Below are positions 1,733-25,680 of a DNA stretch of 26,494 nt, one piece after another. This stretch comes from a virus (Duplodnaviria; Heunggongvirae; Uroviricota; Caudoviricetes), in IMG/VR virus record IMGVR_UViG_3300045988_034764. One strand, written 5' to 3'. Under the pieces are notes generated by a model that searched no databases, was not told where the DNA came from, and was given only the letters and a program-made list of their open reading frames with translations. Every line of letters begins with the position of its first letter. Within the stretch, counting starts at the first letter, position 1. The translations under genes and the position numbers were made by a program.

Positions 1733-1764
1733 TTGCAGACACCAATATAATAGGGTACTATTCA
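1733..1764 (+). promoter_or_regulatory. sigma70-like promoter with embedded operator motif, driving the transporter/DpdA cassette
   Basis: TTGCAG (1733-1738), 17-bp spacer, TACTAT (1756-1761); internal TATAAT (1746-1751); core TATAATAGGGTACTATTCA is one copy of the recurrent 19-bp motif. Confidence 0.45.
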
Positions 1765-1788
1765 GTTAACTTAAACAGGAGACGAAAA

Positions 1789-2416: not shown

Positions 2417-3147
2417 CAGTGCATTACCACGGAGGCCCTATTTGGGGTGGGGATGAGCTTATAGAAGCATTGTACCGAGGTGGTGGTGCTCTGGTATCAT
2501 ACGCCCGCCCCGATCAAATACGAAAGATAGCCGCCACGAGATGTAAATTAGTGTTGGACAACGGAGCTTTTTCGACGTGGAAGAAAGCACCGGACAACAT
2601 AGACTGGAGCGCCCACTGGGCAGGATATTATGATTTTGTCGGAGAGTGGTTCAGTCGTATTGAGTGGTTCATAATACCGGACGTTATAGAGGGCACGGAG
2701 GAAGAGAACGACGCATTAATAGAAACTGTCCCCGATTGGTTAAGGTCTAAGGCGGTCCCGGTGTGGCACAGCGATGAAAGTATAAGAAGACTGGTAAAAC
2801 TGTGCCGTGGGTTCAATCGGGTAGCGATAGGTTGCTGCGGACCGCACAGGGCCATACGGTCTAAGTCATGGGGGAAAAGAATGGACCAGGCATTTAATGC
2901 GGTTTATAGAAACAGGAAATTGGATGTAAAACTCCACGGCCTTAGAATGCTGGATGGGCGGGCCTTGAGCCGCTACCCTTTCGACAGCGCTGACAGCACA
3001 AACGTAGCTATAAATGTGCCGAAAACTAAGGCAAGACTACCTGACATAACGGACAAACTGCATCGAACTGCCATAATGAGGCATACCATAGAGATGGTTA
3101 AACCCCCTACAGTAGAGGAATGGCTACTTAAAACTAAGGCCCCATAA
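2413..3147 (+). CDS. dpdA: DpdA-like tRNA-guanine transglycosylase paralog (7-deazaguanine DNA transglycosylase candidate)
   Basis: 244 aa; TGT-like motifs LDNGAF (compare DSGGFQ) and FDSADST (compare FDCVxPT); no zinc-binding subdomain, as in short phage DpdA; coupled to the YhhQ-like gene. Confidence 0.5.
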   Translation: MTVHYHGGPIWGGDELIEALYRGGGALVSYARPDQIRKIAATRCKLVLDNGAFSTWKKAPDNIDWSAHWAGYYDFVGEWFSRIEWFIIPDVIEGTEEENDALIETVPDWLRSKAVPVWHSDESIRRLVKLCRGFNRVAIGCCGPHRAIRSKSWGKRMDQAFNAVYRNRKLDVKLHGLRMLDGRALSRYPFDSADSTNVAINVPKTKARLPDITDKLHRTAIMRHTIEMVKPPTVEEWLLKTKAP

Positions 3148-3159
3148 CGGGGCCTTTTT
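3136..3159. terminator. Intrinsic terminator at the end of the modification cassette (possibly bidirectional)
   Basis: AAGGCCCC-ATAAC-GGGGCCTT hairpin spanning the DpdA stop codon, followed by TTTTT; portal gene ends at 3162 on the other strand. Confidence 0.55.
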
Positions 3160-3161
3160 CG

Positions 3162-4631
3162 CTACTCCTGTTGCTGTGCCGACTGCGGAATCTCCCCCTC
3201 CACCTGAGTAACAGCACCTAACGGCAGTGGTGCATCCTCGATTGCGTTCTGAATGTCCTCGTCCGTCCAGTCAGTTACGCCAGCCTTACGCAATGCTGCA
3301 TAGTAAGCAGTGGCGGGCAGCAAACCGGCATTAATGTCTGCCATCCACTGCGCACGGTCATGGGCGGTCATCGGTTGCAAGAAGAACTCCATATTCAGCT
3401 TGAACTCAATCTCTGTGCCTTCACGCAGCCCTAGCATCGCAGCCACCCAGCGCAACGCATCGGTGTACGCCATGCTTACGTTCCGCGCGATTGTCGCCAT
3501 AACTGACGTATCCGCACCGCGTTGCAGTCTGGCCGATTCAGCGGTGATTTGCTGCGTCGGGGTGATAAGCTGCGCACCAATCTGGATAGCCTGATTCTCT
3601 TTATCCAGCATGTTCTGCTTAGCGAGGTTGTTCTCCCCCGCCTGAACCAGAAACGCATTGCCGCCGTAACCAATGTTGTGGCCTGAACGCGACCCCATAC
3701 GCACGCCGTGAGGGTTGGCTTCTTTCCACTGTTCCATGCTCATGTTCTCGCCCGGCGCAATGAACAAAGTAGGCTGGCCTACCACGAAGCTGGACTCTTC
3801 ATTGTCTGCGCTGTTACGGAAATGCCCGATATTAAGCTCAGCCAACGGCAGCAAAGGTGCATCGTCAATTGTTGCATCGTTGTTGCTCGCACCAATGAAC
3901 GTAAATGGGATTTTACCGCGCAACTGTTCGCCCAGTTCCGGGAATATTTCGATTACTTCGTCCTGAGCGCCGCCTTCGGCATCGAAGCGGTAAATGCGCT
4001 GGCGGTAGCGACCGTCAATCAGGTCAAGGACGCGGTATTGCTCGCCAAACTTGGTTTCGAACTCCGCACCCGGTTCTGAGTATTCCCATGCCTCACGCAG
4101 CACGACCATAGTCACACGGTTCACTGAACCTACGCGTGTCAGTCGCCAGTTGATGATGTTCTCTGCGGTATAGAATGCGATGACCGGGTTTAATAACCCT
4201 GCGTTCTGTTCGGCTGCCGTCGCGGCGGCGGTCTCTGGGGCATCAACCAGCAACCCGCCACGACCTACCGAGTCAATCTCCATCAGCGTATCCTGCGCGT
4301 GCTGCCACAGCCCGACACCGGAACCGTCAGCATTACGTAGCAGGTACTCCATCTCAGGCGGAATAATCTGTTCGGGGTCTTTGCGCATGACGCTACCGAC
4401 CATCCCCGCCAGGGTACGTTTAGTGAAGTTGTAGCAGATAGCGCCGTTCTCGTATTCTTCCTGGCGCTGCGCTGCGTAGGTTGGGTCTGGCTCGTTCTTC
4501 CCGACGTTGCGAAGATAGCGGATAAGGTCGCCTTCCAGCGCGTGTCGCACCTTCTGCCATTTATCGAAGTGATGCAGCCATTCCCGGTGTTTTGTCTTAA
4601 CACCCTGATTCTGACCGTTCATAGTTAACAT
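3162..4631 (-). CDS. Portal protein
   Basis: 489 aa ORF between terminase large subunit and head morphogenesis gene; AAGAGGA SD; size and position typical of a portal. Confidence 0.6.
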   Translation of the reverse strand: MLTMNGQNQGVKTKHREWLHHFDKWQKVRHALEGDLIRYLRNVGKNEPDPTYAAQRQEEYENGAICYNFTKRTLAGMVGSVMRKDPEQIIPPEMEYLLRNADGSGVGLWQHAQDTLMEIDSVGRGGLLVDAPETAAATAAEQNAGLLNPVIAFYTAENIINWRLTRVGSVNRVTMVVLREAWEYSEPGAEFETKFGEQYRVLDLIDGRYRQRIYRFDAEGGAQDEVIEIFPELGEQLRGKIPFTFIGASNNDATIDDAPLLPLAELNIGHFRNSADNEESSFVVGQPTLFIAPGENMSMEQWKEANPHGVRMGSRSGHNIGYGGNAFLVQAGENNLAKQNMLDKENQAIQIGAQLITPTQQITAESARLQRGADTSVMATIARNVSMAYTDALRWVAAMLGLREGTEIEFKLNMEFFLQPMTAHDRAQWMADINAGLLPATAYYAALRKAGVTDWTDEDIQNAIEDAPLPLGAVTQVEGEIPQSAQQQE

Positions 4632-4906: not shown

Positions 4907-6157
4907 TCACAGAGAAAAAGTAACGGGGATGTTGATTACTGGTTTAACCACCGGCATCTCGTAAACTACAGGATAGCCGAGAGCATCCGCCATATGGTCG
5001 ATGATGCCGTCTTTATCTGGCTCTCCGTTATCGTCATATGCCTGCTGCTCCAGCGTCTTCGCTATCTCGGGGCATAAGTGGTCGTTAACCCACAGCTTAC
5101 CTTTTTCCAGCGCGGTATTCACGGCTAAAACACGGTCTTTAACCGGGGGGTTGGCGGATTTAGCGCGAACATCGAACCCGGCCTGCTGGAGTAACGCGAT
5201 ATCAGAGATTGACGCTGAGTTGGTTTTGCGGTTCTTGCCGCTGGCGTCGGGGTAAACGACGATGCGGTGGCCTTGCGATTTCCACTTCTCGGTAATGACG
5301 CGCACAGTATCCGGCGTATCGAACAGACCTTTCAGTTCTGCCACCGCGTGCCAGCCGTCTTTACGCTGCACATACACGGCGCTCGCGTTCTTCGTAACGT
5401 TGAAGTCCTGCCCGATGTACAGCGTGTCGCCCGGTTGAATAGTCTCTTTGCTGCGGTGCTTGCGACGGTCATACGCGTAATACACGCTGCCGGATGTCAG
5501 GTTAACGAACTCGCCGTTCAGATACGCGTTAATCAACTGTGCCGGGTAAGTCTCCGTCAGCGAGCTAATGTAATCCGGCGGCAGGAATCTCGCATTCTCA
5601 TGAGTTGATGCCTGCACCATTGAGTAACTCGGCGTCGGGTTCTCTTTGAACTTGGCGTAGACGAACTTGAACCCTTCCGGCGTCGTGGTGACGGAGATGT
5701 GGTTGGTTACGCCAGGAATAACCAGACGCATACGGGCTACGATTTTGTTCCACGCCAGCTCAGCTTTCTCGCGACTCAATACGTCGAGCTCATCCACGAC
5801 CGCGGCGGCGATTTTGAAGCCGACGATAGAGCCAGGGTTATCCATCGAACGGCAGATAACCGTACCGAGCACCGTCTTACCGCGAGTGACAACGACCTCT
5901 TTGTCGCCGGATTTAACCAGCACATCAAGGCCGAGCAGGTTAGCCGCTTCCTCGAATGTCGGGTAGAAGATGTCGCGGATGGCCGGGTACGTCGGCCCGA
6001 AGTAGCCCAGGCGCGCACCTGGGTGCTTGAGCATGAATGTAAGCAGGTCCAGACAGCCAACAAATGTCTTGCCGCTGCCGAATCCCCCGACATAGGCTTT
6101 GTATTTGTTATCGCAATTCAGGAACAGTGCCTGCGGGGCGGATAGCTGAATACTCAT
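4907..6157 (-). CDS. terL: Terminase large subunit
   Basis: 416 aa; Walker A GGFGSGKT, Walker B VVDELD; ATGA overlap with upstream small-subunit gene. Confidence 0.85.
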   Translation of the reverse strand: MSIQLSAPQALFLNCDNKYKAYVGGFGSGKTFVGCLDLLTFMLKHPGARLGYFGPTYPAIRDIFYPTFEEAANLLGLDVLVKSGDKEVVVTRGKTVLGTVICRSMDNPGSIVGFKIAAAVVDELDVLSREKAELAWNKIVARMRLVIPGVTNHISVTTTPEGFKFVYAKFKENPTPSYSMVQASTHENARFLPPDYISSLTETYPAQLINAYLNGEFVNLTSGSVYYAYDRRKHRSKETIQPGDTLYIGQDFNVTKNASAVYVQRKDGWHAVAELKGLFDTPDTVRVITEKWKSQGHRIVVYPDASGKNRKTNSASISDIALLQQAGFDVRAKSANPPVKDRVLAVNTALEKGKLWVNDHLCPEIAKTLEQQAYDDNGEPDKDGIIDHMADALGYPVVYEMPVVKPVINIPVTFSL

Positions 6158-8574: not shown

Positions 8575-8603
8575 AATATAATTGGTGTAAGAGTAATAGT
8601 CAA
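8575..8603 (-). promoter_or_regulatory. sigma70-like promoter for the small-gene array
   Basis: On minus strand TTGACT (8598-8603), 17-bp spacer, TATATT (8575-8580); about 30 nt upstream of the first ORF. Confidence 0.4.
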
Positions 8604-8624
8604 CTAGTCATAGCAGAAAATAGA

Positions 8625-8657
8625 TAAAAAAAATCCCGGCTGGGTCAGGGCCGGGAT
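8625..8657 (-). terminator. Intrinsic terminator after the lysis cassette
   Basis: 8-bp stem ATCCCGGC/GCCGGGAT with 9-nt loop, followed on the minus strand by T8. Confidence 0.6.
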
Positions 8658-11724: not shown

Positions 11725-11848
11725 TGTTGCATCTCCCGCAATAGTCGCTTCGATTGTTGCGTTTGGTGAAATAGAACAAAAATGAGAAAAATGATACGCT
11801 GCTGTGTAGCAGCGTAAGTCACTCAGTAAAATCCCAAACTATTGAACA

Positions 11849-12756: not shown

Positions 12757-12972
12757 CACTTCGCCCCTTTGAATTTAAAATTGTTGCCGATGAGTTTTAT
12801 CCCGTCCTCCCGGACCCATAAATCGAAACACCATTCTGGATGCGCGAGATAGCATAACCCAGGAACTTAATTCGAAACTCGTTTAATTATTGCGTAATGT
12901 CCGCCGCGTTTCGTTTTCACCAACTGACCCTTCTTAAACATAACCCTCACTCCTCTGTCTCGTTTCGATAAG

Positions 12973-13006
12973 TGAATAGTATCCTATTATATTGGGGTGT
13001 GCAAGA
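12973..13006 (-). promoter_or_regulatory. sigma70-like promoter with operator motif (copy B)
   Basis: On minus strand TTGCAC (12999-13004), 17-bp spacer, TACTAT (12976-12981); core TGAATAGTATCCTATTATA at 12973-12991. Confidence 0.45.
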
Positions 13007-13362
13007 GAATAGTTACGTTGCCGTTGTGATTCTTTCGTTTCTTAAAAGAGTACGCAACGCAGTGGGTGGGCGTTAGCCCACCCCAGCGGAGTGAAGTACT
13101 CTCTACCTTGTTTACGGCAATTATAGAAACTTTTAATTATCAGTGACTTGGGTATTTAGGCGGGATTAACAATAGACTTTGGCCCTTCCGAAAGCGCCAG
13201 CGGAACTACACTCAAGTGCCTAATGGCACGCGTTGCGTTCCCTGCCGCTCCGCGGTCGCTTGCGATATCTCACAAGCTCAGTGAAGCTTAGCATATTTTT
13301 AAGTAAAAGTCAATACCAGTAGCATCTTTTGTATCTTAGTAACTTTGTGTGGCGTTTTGGTT

Positions 13363-13391
13363 GCTTTTACATTCCCGCTATCCTATACTCA
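13363..13391 (+). promoter_or_regulatory. sigma70-like promoter for the plus-strand replication module
   Basis: TTGCTT, 17-bp spacer, TATACT, about 30 nt upstream of the ATG at 13421. Confidence 0.4.
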
Positions 13392-13420
13392 GCTTCACCA
13401 AACAAACAGGAGATATAAAA

Positions 13421-13603
13421 ATGCAGCATTACATGACCCAGAATGAAGTAGCAGAACGTATCGGGGTGACCCGTCAGACAATTAATAACTGGTTGCGCAG
13501 TGGTAAATTCCCGGATTGCTGTATTAAGGTTATGGGCCGCCGTTTACCGGGTACATTTGACCGTAATAAAGTTGAAGCGTGGATTAAGGAGAACGTGAAA
13601 TGA
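13421..13603 (+). CDS. AlpA/excisionase-type helix-turn-helix DNA-binding protein
   Basis: Start moved to ATG with AGGAG SD (track start lies inside the promoter); MTQNEVAERIGVTRQTINNWLRSGKFP matches the AlpA-family HTH pattern. Confidence 0.7.
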   Translation: MQHYMTQNEVAERIGVTRQTINNWLRSGKFPDCCIKVMGRRLPGTFDRNKVEAWIKENVK

Positions 13604-13890: not shown

Positions 13891-13948
13891 AAGAAAGCCC
13901 CGACGCGTGAACGCCGAGGCCAAATTACTTGCTGAAGGAATATACAAT

Positions 13949-16216
13949 ATGTCCGATGTGATTTTATCCTACTCGTGGTCCCGTCGCAACGCGCGGGCGG
14001 AGAAAAAGGATATAAACGTCAGAACCACACACACGGCAACACTGGACGACCTGAAAGGGTTAATCCAGCCGCTCGATGCTGTTCGCGGCGGGATTAACCC
14101 TAAGACCGCGCCTGGCTATATCACGGCCGCGTGCGACTCGACGCACAGCACCGTAAAAGACCCGGAAACAGGCGACTTTAAGCAAGCGCGTAAAGGCTTC
14201 TTCTACCGCTGCGACGCGTCTGTAAGCAAATCGTCGCTTGCCTATCTGGACTTTGACAGTGCAACGCCAGAGGAGTATCAGGAAGCTGTGCGCCTGGTTA
14301 AGCGCAGCCGCCGGGCAATGTGCATTTACACCACGGCATCACATACCGACGAGTCACCGCGCTTTCGCGTCGTCATGCCTCTGGGCCGCCCGGTCGAAGG
14401 TGGTGACATCATCCGTGTTCGTCATGGATTGCTGGAACACTTCTTCAAGGGCATGGGTGCTGACCGCAGTGGGTTCACCCTGTCGCAGCCGATGTACCTG
14501 CCACCGGTTGGCTCTACGGTTATCTGGTCTCGCCGCAACGACCTGATTGACCCGTACGAGTTGCTTGAAGGTATCCCCGCCGTCGACGTTAGCAGCGCAT
14601 CCGACTACCAGATACCGGAAGAACTGCGCACTGCGTTTACTGATGCGTTCGAGGCACTGGCCTTCGAGTATGGCGGTGTCATGACGCCACGCGGCCTGAA
14701 GATGCCCGCTACACCAGAACACGCCGAAAACTACAGCGACCCTACCCCGCGCCCGGACGACTTCCTGCTGTGCTTCCCGCGAGAGGGGTACGAAGCGCCA
14801 AACGTGACCATGATTCACGACACCGACATTACGGCGACCGAAGGCATGTCGCCGAAAGAGGTGTGGAAATACGCTTGCGATGCGACCGGGATGCCATTCA
14901 GTGAAGTCGCAGAGGCCATCGGTTGGGGTGCGCGAGAATCTGTTTCATGCAGCCTGGACGACCTGGAAGACGATGAGGACTCAGAGGAGGACGAGTTACC
15001 GGAACCGGTAAAGGCGGATTTCGTCGTTGAAGGGTACATGCCGTCAGATTGTATCTGGGATATTGTCGGGGAATCTGGCACGTACAAATCGTTCTATACG
15101 CTGGGGATGATGTACCTGAGCGCCGCCGGATACCGGTTTGCGGGGGCGGATACTCAGCGCTGCCACCATTTCTATATCGACGGTGAGGGCGGCGCAGCCA
15201 CACGTACGCGTATTGATGCACTAGCGGCTAAATATGGTGAGGAAGGTAAAGATTATGTACATGTCATCGACATGGGCGAAGTCGGAAAACTGAAAAGCCT
15301 TATTAAGTTGATGCGTGAAACTGCTGGTGACGAACCCATCGGTATGGTCGCGTTTGATACCCTTAACCAGACGCTGGCGCTGACGATTGATAAGTTCGAC
15401 GAGAACAGTTCATCAACGGCAATCGGCATGGGTAAAGTTATCGCCATCCTGAAAGAAGTACGTGACGCGACTAAAGCTGCAGTGGGCGTCGTCCACCACA
15501 CACCGAAGGGTGGAAAGAAAGCCCGCGGCAGTGGGGCGCTGTATGCGGGCGTCGACGTGGAACTGACAATTGAACGCGCTACCGACCGTCAGATAAACGT
15601 ATACCACTCTAAATTCAAACACGGCCCACAACAAAAAACTGTCGGCATGGTGCTTGAGTCGGTACAGTTCCGTGAAGCGCCACCCCCGAAAGAGTACCGC
15701 GCGGTTGAGTTCCTGGGTAGCACAGAGGAATACGGCACAATCGTTAACCTGGACCTGCCTGAGCCGCACAAGGCGCTTGTTCTGATGCCGTGGGGTTTCG
15801 AGCCGTTCAAAACTGACGAGGAGAAAGAGCGCGAAGAAGGTCTGACAAAGGAAGGTAAAGAAAACGTACGTAAAACCGTAGAGAACGCTGTCAACAGTTC
15901 AGAGGCCACGATACTCGCAGCGTTCGAACTGGCGGAAGGAACCTACAACGGCAACGAAGGCATCACGGTAGCCGCAGCGAATAAGCTGGCACAGTCTGAC
16001 CCCAACGCAAAGGCGTTTAACTCCAAAGAAGCCATAGAACGCGGGAAGATTAAGAAAATGGTTGAGGCCGGGTATCTTGTTCCGGGGACTGACGAAAACA
16101 ATCAGATAATACCAGGCCGTTACAGACTGAATACCCGAATAACTGATAACAAGATTCCTAAGACAATATACGAACCGAATGAAATGCTGACAGTGACAGA
16201 GGAAGATTTGGAATAG
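13949..16216 (+). CDS. DNA primase / helicase (primase-polymerase-like N-terminus fused to RecA-like ATPase)
   Basis: Start moved to ATG with GAAGGA SD (track start is GTG at 13907); N-terminal LDFD AEP-like motif; Walker A GESGTYKS, Walker B VAFDTL. Confidence 0.7.
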   Translation: MSDVILSYSWSRRNARAEKKDINVRTTHTATLDDLKGLIQPLDAVRGGINPKTAPGYITAACDSTHSTVKDPETGDFKQARKGFFYRCDASVSKSSLAYLDFDSATPEEYQEAVRLVKRSRRAMCIYTTASHTDESPRFRVVMPLGRPVEGGDIIRVRHGLLEHFFKGMGADRSGFTLSQPMYLPPVGSTVIWSRRNDLIDPYELLEGIPAVDVSSASDYQIPEELRTAFTDAFEALAFEYGGVMTPRGLKMPATPEHAENYSDPTPRPDDFLLCFPREGYEAPNVTMIHDTDITATEGMSPKEVWKYACDATGMPFSEVAEAIGWGARESVSCSLDDLEDDEDSEEDELPEPVKADFVVEGYMPSDCIWDIVGESGTYKSFYTLGMMYLSAAGYRFAGADTQRCHHFYIDGEGGAATRTRIDALAAKYGEEGKDYVHVIDMGEVGKLKSLIKLMRETAGDEPIGMVAFDTLNQTLALTIDKFDENSSSTAIGMGKVIAILKEVRDATKAAVGVVHHTPKGGKKARGSGALYAGVDVELTIERATDRQINVYHSKFKHGPQQKTVGMVLESVQFREAPPPKEYRAVEFLGSTEEYGTIVNLDLPEPHKALVLMPWGFEPFKTDEEKEREEGLTKEGKENVRKTVENAVNSSEATILAAFELAEGTYNGNEGITVAAANKLAQSDPNAKAFNSKEAIERGKIKKMVEAGYLVPGTDENNQIIPGRYRLNTRITDNKIPKTIYEPNEMLTVTEEDLE

Positions 16217-19829: not shown

Positions 19830-19848
19830 TATCTGAATCAATTTAACT

Positions 19849-19872
19849 AAGGCCCTTCATTGGGCCTTTTTA
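19849..19872 (+). terminator. Intrinsic terminator or attenuator before the polymerase gene
   Basis: AAGGCCC-TTCATT-GGGCCTT hairpin followed by TTTTAC. Confidence 0.5.
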
Positions 19873-25516: not shown

Positions 25517-25650
25517 ACATCATGGCCCCGATTCCGGCATTGCAAAAACGTATCAAGGAACTCGAAGAAGAGGTTCTACGACTACGGCAACAGAGAGACG
25601 CCGCTAATGCGCAACTGGCGTTTATACTGGAGAAGTTATCAGGAGAGTAG
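25513..25650 (+). CDS. Small coiled-coil protein (45 aa), not in ORF track
   Basis: ATGA overlap with upstream ORF; heptad-like KRIKELEEEVLRLRQQ; followed by a terminator. Confidence 0.35.
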   Translation: MNIMAPIPALQKRIKELEEEVLRLRQQRDAANAQLAFILEKLSGE

Positions 25651-25654
25651 AGAA

Positions 25655-25680
25655 AAGGCCCCGTTTGGGGCCTTAGTTTT
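25655..25680. terminator. Intrinsic terminator between convergent genes
   Basis: AAGGCCCC-GTTT-GGGGCCTT hairpin followed by AGTTTT. Confidence 0.5.

Follow-up and report, generated by a model that had tools for sequence, protein, structure and literature searches.

Phage HK022 encodes two related put RNAs of about 70 nt, with putL located right after PL, that act in the absence of protein partners (PMC9378689). Placed at the head of long operons, they form stem-loops with bulges, two per RNA, which adopt a V shape with a triplex in stem I (PMC9378689). Terminators are suppressed in cis without phage proteins, and suppression depends on the β′ zinc-binding domain (PMC9378689). Bacillus EAR, Tn916 canT and pLS20 conAn2 are likewise structured leader RNAs of long operons with internal terminators, acting in cis and in one orientation, and their existence indicates that antitermination RNAs come in unrelated shapes (PMC11658703).

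Here we describe a conserved, structured RNA of about 110 nt that lies directly downstream of a predicted σ70 promoter at the head of long gene series in phages of the Guernseyvirinae. The locus was examined in a viral DNA stretch of 26,494 nt (IMG/VR record IMGVR_UViG_3300045988_034764), referred to as the window. The window derives from a phage of the genus Kagunavirus (Guernseyvirinae), a group infecting E. coli and Salmonella. A 1-kb query around the locus matched 170 phage records, almost all from the Guernseyvirinae genera Kagunavirus and Jerseyvirus, and the best matches were Escherichia phages fFiEco02 and fFiEco03 at ~95–98% identity. Guernseyvirinae (Jersey-like, K1-type) are widely isolated and find therapeutic and biocontrol use, and their transcription programme is essentially unmapped. 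In the literature searched on transcription in Guernseyvirinae, Kagunavirus and Jerseyvirus, we found only lists of predicted promoters and terminators and one gene-level RNA-seq study; the RNA is not mentioned there, and the Kagunavirus RNA-seq paper does not discuss intergenic RNA. To our knowledge, these phages have neither an RNA polymerase of their own nor a recognised antiterminator.

In annotated relatives, the locus falls within an intergenic region of ~470 bp, with leftward small early genes on one side and, on the other, a rightward HTH gene and then the gene for the replicative helicase-primase. The setting in the window is as follows.

12951–13420: intergenic region.
13421–13603, plus strand: HTH gene, with an HTH_17 domain (Pfam).
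13907–16216: helicase-primase gene, adjoining the region.
13361–13389, plus strand: predicted divergent promoter of the HTH gene, TTGCTT-N17-TATACT, read from the sequence.
12976–13004, minus strand: early promoter "copy B", TTGCAC-N17-TACTAT, directly downstream of a nested hairpin and driving the minus-strand early genes.

A first-pass annotation of the sequence had singled out positions 13020–13300 as a noncoding, GC-rich and structured island between divergent transcription units. Both flanking promoters lie where it had placed them, and the absence of a convincing ORF was borne out, the longest frame in 12951–13420 having 34 codons' worth of protein (34 aa) and none being conserved. A small-ORF reading was rejected, with no conserved frame, indels between variants and the sole ATG falling within a promoter. 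The compositional claim holds against the AT-rich promoter flanks (GC 0.34–0.375) but not against the window: GC content over 13020–13300 is 0.488 versus a window mean of 0.506, in the 32nd percentile of 281-nt windows. GC is instead concentrated in two islands, 13170–13279 (0.58) and 13047–13105 (0.59). The feature also reaches further than proposed, to 13313, the edge of a promoter designated Px, which stands back to back with the divergent HTH-gene promoter (47 bp from −35 to −35). Its minus-strand parts are listed below.

13285–13313, minus strand: Px, predicted σ70 extended −10 promoter, TTGACT-N17-TGnTAAGCT, from sequence and conservation (−35 TTGACT, 13313–13308; TG, 13293–13292, ending the 17-nt spacer; −10 TAAGCT, 13290–13285).
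13170–13279, minus strand: conserved structured RNA (model R1), from a covariance model, covariation and minimum free energy (MFE).
13258–13277, minus strand: 5′ hairpin P1, 6–8 bp.
13188–13255, minus strand: long irregular hairpin P2, with the tip GTGCC-TAAT-GGCAC at 13216–13229.
13170–13187, minus strand: conserved single-stranded 3′ tail AAGGGCCAAAGUCUAUUG, part of R1.
13106–13169, minus strand: AT-rich spacer of 64 nt (GC 0.34) between the RNA and the hairpin that follows.
13044–13104, minus strand: terminator-like nested hairpin, from its fold, with UUUU at 13047–13044 and then AAG.

A sensitive BLAST search showed that window positions 13170–13313 match a second intergenic region at ~78–80% identity, a match present in a large share of 228 matching Guernseyvirinae records. 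This second region lies between a "tail protein" gene and the spanin and capsid genes. The structural-region paralogue is referred to as the S copy and the early-region version, that of the window, as the E copy. Phage fFiEco02 contains exactly two copies (5722–5829 and 37559–37668), which share a strand and each precede a long run of genes. Viral contigs scanned with a sequence pattern yielded 49 loci, and many contigs carry both copies. E copies split into divergent types: E1 is that of the window, E2–E4 come from the 49 loci, and further viral and metagenome scans added E5 (contig L174) and E6 (L228 and L254). The S copy occurs in most Guernseyvirinae; the Kagunavirus and Jerseyvirus genomes that were examined, SETP13 among them, all have it. 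The E copy is restricted to a subset of Kagunaviruses, and Jerseyvirus SETP13 has the S copy without an E copy, which indicates that the E copy is dispensable for this type of phage.

Model R1 was built from the S and E2 types only, with a hand-drawn structure, and recovered all remaining types. Its match in the window scores 80.9 bits (E ~1e-19) and is the sole copy there. The RNA consists of P1, which in all copies starts 2 nt from the predicted 5′ end, the long hairpin P2, a conserved internal-loop motif, GAGUGUAG, and the single-stranded tail. A 112-nt minus-strand segment folds with an MFE of −49.3 kcal/mol (z = −4.06; 0/200 shuffles as stable), compared with −37.6 kcal/mol (z = −2.21) for the plus strand. 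The stems are kept in related phages. Among 29 distinct sequences, which represent only about seven lineages and were aligned by fitting to R1 itself, 95.2% of cells form a standard pair, as opposed to 31–42% when the 3′ partner is slid by 1–3 columns. Eleven pairs changed on both sides, against a shuffled mean of 5.4, and the covariation score was 0.201, against 0.072; neither value was reached in 500 shuffles. RNAalifold returned nearly the same fold from this alignment (25 pairs, 9 compensatory). P1 and the 5′ base of P2 belonged to the search patterns, and their invariance is therefore uninformative. The tip helix has changed in sequence while pairing was maintained, with at least five different versions: GGAC/GUCC (S), GUGC/GCAC (E2), GUGCC/GGCAC (E1), ACGU/ACGU (E4) and GGGC/GCCC (E5). 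Similarly, the base of the long hairpin has a pair that varies between C-G, U-A and A-U, and a mid-stem pair varies between U-A, A-U and G-C.

Three observations fix the strand as minus. At the base of P2, two G·U pairs hardly vary (27/28 sequences each) and would become C·A on the other strand, nearly all one-sided changes yield G·U, and the minus-sense RNA folds 7–13 kcal/mol more stably than the plus-sense RNA in 8/8 variants tested. A plus-strand RNA was rejected on the same fold difference and the C·A mismatches. Together with the covariation, the near-invariant G·U pairs and the strand asymmetry argue that the conserved structure is one of RNA and not of DNA. Pairing of the GAGUGU loop with the AUAnUC tail as a pseudoknot was also considered and rejected, as judged by eye, since a variable base fails to keep the pairing.

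The element appears confined to its phage group, in that no copy was found outside Guernseyvirinae in viral, metagenome and bacterial scans. Serratia phage ZDD2, the nearest outgroup (42% capsid identity), has no equivalent intergenic region and no R1 match. A loose motif scan of viral contigs returned chance matches only, save one known Guernseyvirinae contig, and a scan of bacterial genomes gave 20 hits, about the chance expectation, of which 19 fail R1 and one is probably a mis-binned phage contig. An E4-type copy (70.7 bits) was seen at 2136–2245 of JAEWLW010000073.1 (L196), a 6.2-kb contig of a "Bacillota bacterium" MAG that is almost certainly a Kagunavirus contig mis-binned into that assembly. 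Rfam 15 gave no match at gathering thresholds across the whole window; a permissive search of 12900–13450 gave two matches only, with E > 1 and far under threshold, and ARAGORN found nothing. The RNA looks like an undescribed family, new in structure and probably of a known kind of function.

The first-pass annotation had proposed that the island serves as an origin of replication or a structured regulatory RNA. The second half of this proposal is supported once corrected to a minus-strand RNA with its own predicted promoter, placed inside the supposed noncoding region. The origin half drew no support. An origin, perhaps one primed by transcription through an R-loop or primer RNA, would suit the position between divergent units beside the helicase-primase gene and the 64-bp AT-rich stretch (GC 0.34) that follows a promoter and a GC-rich transcribed segment. 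The cumulative GC skew also has its minimum here, which the gene-strand switch alone explains. The sequence nevertheless contains no iterons, no repeat family with at least three meaningful copies and a single 8/9 DnaA-like site; the GC-rich imperfect repeats that had been noted are just two-copy matches of 8–18 nt and form no iteron-like family. Moreover, the element is found in the structural-gene leader as well, far from the replication genes, and Jerseyviruses have it only there, and it is an RNA fold that selection appears to maintain, judging by the compensatory changes and the near-invariant G·U pairs. We therefore regard an origin at this site as highly improbable.

Conservation extends upstream of the RNA into Px. 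The −35 hexamer is TTGACT in 37/38 distinct modules, and the 17-nt spacer, the TG and TAAGCT are each found in 38/38, although Px was not part of the search pattern by which the module sequences were collected. The base between TG and the −10 hexamer is free (C in 26, A in 7 and G in 5 of the 38). Fixed hexamers, TG and spacer length combined with a free n in TGn are the signature of an extended −10 promoter. The TG lies at −15/−14, and transcription is predicted to start at ~13279/13278 on the minus strand. E and S copies are homologous from the −35 onward, and the predicted +1 is where R1 begins. Because TAAGCT matches TATAAT at only 3/6 positions, a simple consensus scan calls no promoter here. 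No minus-strand gene able to supply a transcript from upstream was found in the gene maps of the window and fFiEco02, and Px is the candidate promoter for the RNA. On the opposite strand, the hairpin AAGCTC..GAGCTT with TTTTT was considered as a terminator and rejected; its T-run is 5 nt off the stem, and it overlaps the minus-strand −10.

Downstream of the RNA, the two copies of the module diverge. The first-pass annotation had described nested hairpins across the island, and the two it named turn out to be different parts: one is the tip of the conserved RNA, the other the terminator-like hairpin downstream. The latter has outer arms AGAGTAC (13047–13053) and GTACTCT (13096–13102) and inner arms GGGTGGGC (13064–13071) and GCCCACCC (13076–13083), as described, and, like the conserved RNA, folds stably as minus-strand RNA (−32.6 kcal/mol, z = −4.36, 0/200 shuffles as stable). 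Its stem is followed by four U residues (three in some relatives), and this short U-tract accounts for the failure of a consensus scan to call a terminator. Termination at this hairpin is accordingly a prediction from its fold and tail. The hairpin is kept in E1- and E2-type relatives, with loop and flank variation; E3- and E4-type relatives have a (CTCA)n tract and the GC hairpin GGTGCC-TTCG-GGCACC in its place. The (CTCA)n microsatellite, of 3–6 units, lies between the RNA and that hairpin (L010 at ~4330–4360; also L017, L042, L047 and L053), and its copy number varies among E3/E4-type phages. A (GTGA)n-like expansion occupies the equivalent place in L015, which has an E1-type leader.

The S copy ends in GCCCCGC-UUUAA-GGCGGGGC-UUUACUUAU, ~15 nt ahead of the spanin ATG. 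This terminal hairpin, which folds at −22.3 kcal/mol (z = −4.1), is called by a terminator scan and shows a compensatory C-G to U-A change in L006; in L055, the terminator spans 5896–5915 with the tail TTTACTTATC and is followed by the spanin ATG at 5940. Every version of the module thus ends in a hairpin. The spacer of the window shows patchy similarity to that of the S copy (AAGUnACUGA, GUUUCUAU), which suggests that duplication took in the whole unit, promoter through terminator.

In fFiEco02, the RNA-sense strand bears a single co-directional gene series of ~33 kb. It begins with the E module, the early promoter, small early genes, holins/endolysin, terminase and portal, and continues with head morphogenesis and tail protein, the S module, spanin, capsid, tail and tailspike. 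The replication genes have the opposite orientation. Within the corresponding downstream unit of the window are strong minus-strand terminator-like sites at 11816–11795 and 3156–3136 and candidate internal promoters, for example at 8603–8575 and 2159–2132, also on the minus strand; fFiEco02 has a candidate promoter, TTGCCT-N17-TATTCT, upstream of the capsid cluster.

Of the explanations considered, the one that fits this arrangement best, and the most likely though still tentative, is that the RNA is a cis-acting leader that renders polymerase resistant to terminators, by analogy with, but not homology to, HK022 put or lambda PR′-6S-tR′. Positions 13313–13044 of the minus strand would constitute a compact transcription unit: a host-type σ70 extended −10 promoter, the ~110-nt RNA and, ~65 nt further on, a hairpin with a short U-run. 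The nascent RNA would act in cis on its own polymerase, either alone, as in HK022 put, or with a host or phage factor, as in nut/N. The modified polymerase would pass the adjoining hairpin or terminator and then later terminators in the long operon. Unmodified transcripts would stop as a leader RNA of ~200–240 nt, as in lambda PR′-6S-tR′.

Several features bear on this antitermination model. Both copies share the same order of promoter, promoter-proximal RNA, non-conserved spacer, hairpin or terminator and long operon. The spacers and terminators differ between copies, and no conserved alternative pairing of the RNA with them was found, which favours an effect travelling with the polymerase over control by a riboswitch or attenuator; the form of such control that uses an overlapping expression platform was rejected on this basis. 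At the S copy, the terminator leaves no room for a promoter before the spanin gene, and spanin expression from Px would thus need read-through. The terminator-like sites at 11816–11795 and 3156–3136 also count for the model. The weak −10 (3/6) and the short U-tracts count against it, as do the lack of an E copy in SETP13, the missing homology to put and the failure of Pfam to find N- or Q-like proteins among 20 window ORFs. The candidate internal promoters mean that read-through is not proven necessary beyond spanin. Separately, a 14-nt stretch of 86% complementarity was noticed between 13230–13243, in the 5′ arm of the RNA, and 13047–13060, in the 3′ arm of the downstream hairpin. This complementarity is specific to E1 and absent from E2, which has the same hairpin; it is probably due to chance, and could permit an alternative fold in E1.

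The resemblance to put is one of layout. In both systems, two related copies per genome lie just downstream of a σ70 promoter at the head of a long operon, the RNAs form two stem-loops with bulges, and there are terminators to pass downstream. The Guernseyvirinae RNA is longer, with ~92 nt of helices and an 18-nt conserved tail as opposed to ~70 nt in total, and combines a short P1 (6–8 bp) with a long P2 (~67 nt). Its host phage is virulent and not lambdoid, and the two copies of the RNA share one strand. Searching the HK022 genome with R1 at full sensitivity found nothing in the PL/PR region or at the put loci. The sole match, of 17 bits and covering P1 only, is at PR′ and was set aside as probably due to chance. 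The HK022 late promoter PR′ (L173, 36868–36956) shares TTGACTTTT with Px and is accompanied by a P1-like inverted repeat, GTTGGG..CCCAAC.

The S copy also resembles the lambda late leader, with a near-consensus −35 (TTGACT) and weak −10, a leader of ~200 nt and an intrinsic terminator, and lysis and then morphogenesis genes directly follow it; the window copy, by contrast, stands ahead of early genes. In lambda, Q engages via DNA and a sigma-dependent pause, and we know of no dependence of the lambda late leader on a covarying RNA fold. In contrast to lambda, no Q homologue was detected in the window: Pfam identified neither N- nor Q-family proteins among 20 of its ORFs, the matches being to NinH, DUF551, DUF7438, lysozyme and HTH only, and the annotation of fFiEco02 has no Q-family antiterminator entry. 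As with lambda nut, the two copies lie close to where long operons start, hairpins are combined with a conserved single-stranded segment, and the effect on downstream terminators would be processive. Aside from the lack of an N-like protein by this Pfam search, nut differs in its boxB, a 15-nt hairpin with a conserved loop, to which the RNA has no counterpart; the tip loop is free to vary (GUAA, GUCA, AUUA or CUCG). The tail CUCUAUUG matches boxA GCUCUUUA weakly, at no more than 5/8 positions by eye. EAR, canT and conAn2 are likewise structured leader RNAs placed where a long operon begins. They have no sequence relationship to the RNA, come from Gram-positive hosts and exceed it in size (canT, ~450 nt), and the RNA has no Rfam match to EAR.

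Promoter, 5′-hairpin RNA and terminator are also the exact anatomy of a stand-alone sRNA gene, which counts against antitermination. In such a scheme, transcripts of ~236 nt (early) and ~200 nt (structural) would function in trans, by pairing or by sequestering a protein, and their position at operon heads would be incidental. The self-contained unit of promoter, 5′ hairpin, structured body and terminal hairpin fits this well, two copies per genome would double the dosage, the conserved single-stranded segments GAGUGUAG and GGAAGGGCCAUAnUCUAUUG could be seeds or binding sites, and the patchy similarity between E and S copies extends up to the terminator. The terminal U-tracts, however, are short (3–4 U), unlike those of typical Hfq-type sRNA terminators, and no target or partner was identified. 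In addition, the S-copy terminator abuts the spanin ribosome-binding site with no promoter between, and a fully terminating sRNA gene would therefore shut off spanin expression from Px. On balance, we consider a trans-acting sRNA rather unlikely; were it one, it would be an abundant phage RNA.

The proximity of P1 to the predicted 5′ end raises a further alternative, in which the leader stabilises or processes long mRNAs, with the 5′ hairpin shielding against RNase E and the long hairpin serving as an RNase III site, and leaves polymerase unaffected. A hairpin at the extreme 5′ end is the classic arrangement of a 5′ stabiliser, and P1 keeps its 2-nt distance in every copy; the unit also lies within the leader of the structural operon. 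Yet the early genes of the window have a promoter of their own downstream of the module, so that the main mRNA would lack this 5′ end, and the conserved internal loops, the conserved tail and the terminator after each copy would be left unexplained. This alternative appears improbable.

A bolder form of the antitermination model, which by analogy to put we entertain but find doubtful, is that the RNA represents a new structural class of RNA-only processive antiterminator, a put analogue that arose independently in virulent Guernseyvirinae as a portable, promoter-bearing module copied to operon heads. One such copying event would have given a subset of Kagunaviruses their early-region copy. More generally, an RNA with its own predicted promoter at the entry to the structural operon, joined in many Kagunaviruses by a second copy where the early operon begins, offers a testable handle on how ~33 kb of co-directional genes may be driven past internal terminators. 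If put-like, it would be a second, structurally unrelated case of RNA-only antitermination in enterobacterial phages and a compact part for synthetic biology (promoter plus ~110 nt). With either a cis or a trans function, it is a candidate new Rfam family.

Several further features were noted in the surrounding control regions. The early intergenic region of Salmonella phage SETP13 (L056, 35922–36378) lacks the RNA and has a promoter-like TTGACA-N17-TAAGTT. Its leader of ~280 nt contains the GC hairpins GGTTCCGC..GCGGGAAC and GCACTTGCC..GGCAAGCGC and a repeated TAAGTTACT motif, and may be an analogous, unrelated leader.

Early promoter copy B is part of a 36-nt promoter module, TTGCAnACnCCAATATAATAGGnTACTAT, with the palindrome AATAG..CTATT, which occurs in the window as an inverted repeat at 1733–1768 (plus strand) and 12969–13004 (minus strand) and three times in fFiEco02. 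The module matches the "phage promoter" consensus tgAATAGTa-ccTATTat-T predicted by PHIRE (PMC9825357). It is probably a σ70 promoter with an embedded operator that serves the early genes and opposite-strand morons. The first early ORF after copy B (window 12760–12950, minus strand) encodes only 24–27 aa, MFKKGQLVKTKRGGHYAIIKRVSN, as compared with 62 aa in fFiEco02. Its initial ~12 codons are common to relatives, which diverge completely thereafter, suggesting that this ORF is mosaic or has been replaced; the ~100 nt downstream of it contain no clear ORF.

Two observations concern terminators elsewhere in the window. At 8575–8653 on the minus strand, in the gap that separates the endolysin gene from the next small-gene cluster, a T8-tailed hairpin-like site has a promoter-like TTGACT-N17-TATATT directly after it; the pair may mark a terminator/promoter junction within the long leftward unit. 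Finally, a near-identical terminator hairpin, AAGGCCCC-N3/4-GGGGCCTT, occurs four times (156–182, 3132–3158, 19845–19871 and 25650–25679), in both orientations and at the boundaries of gene clusters, and some of its copies look bidirectional.
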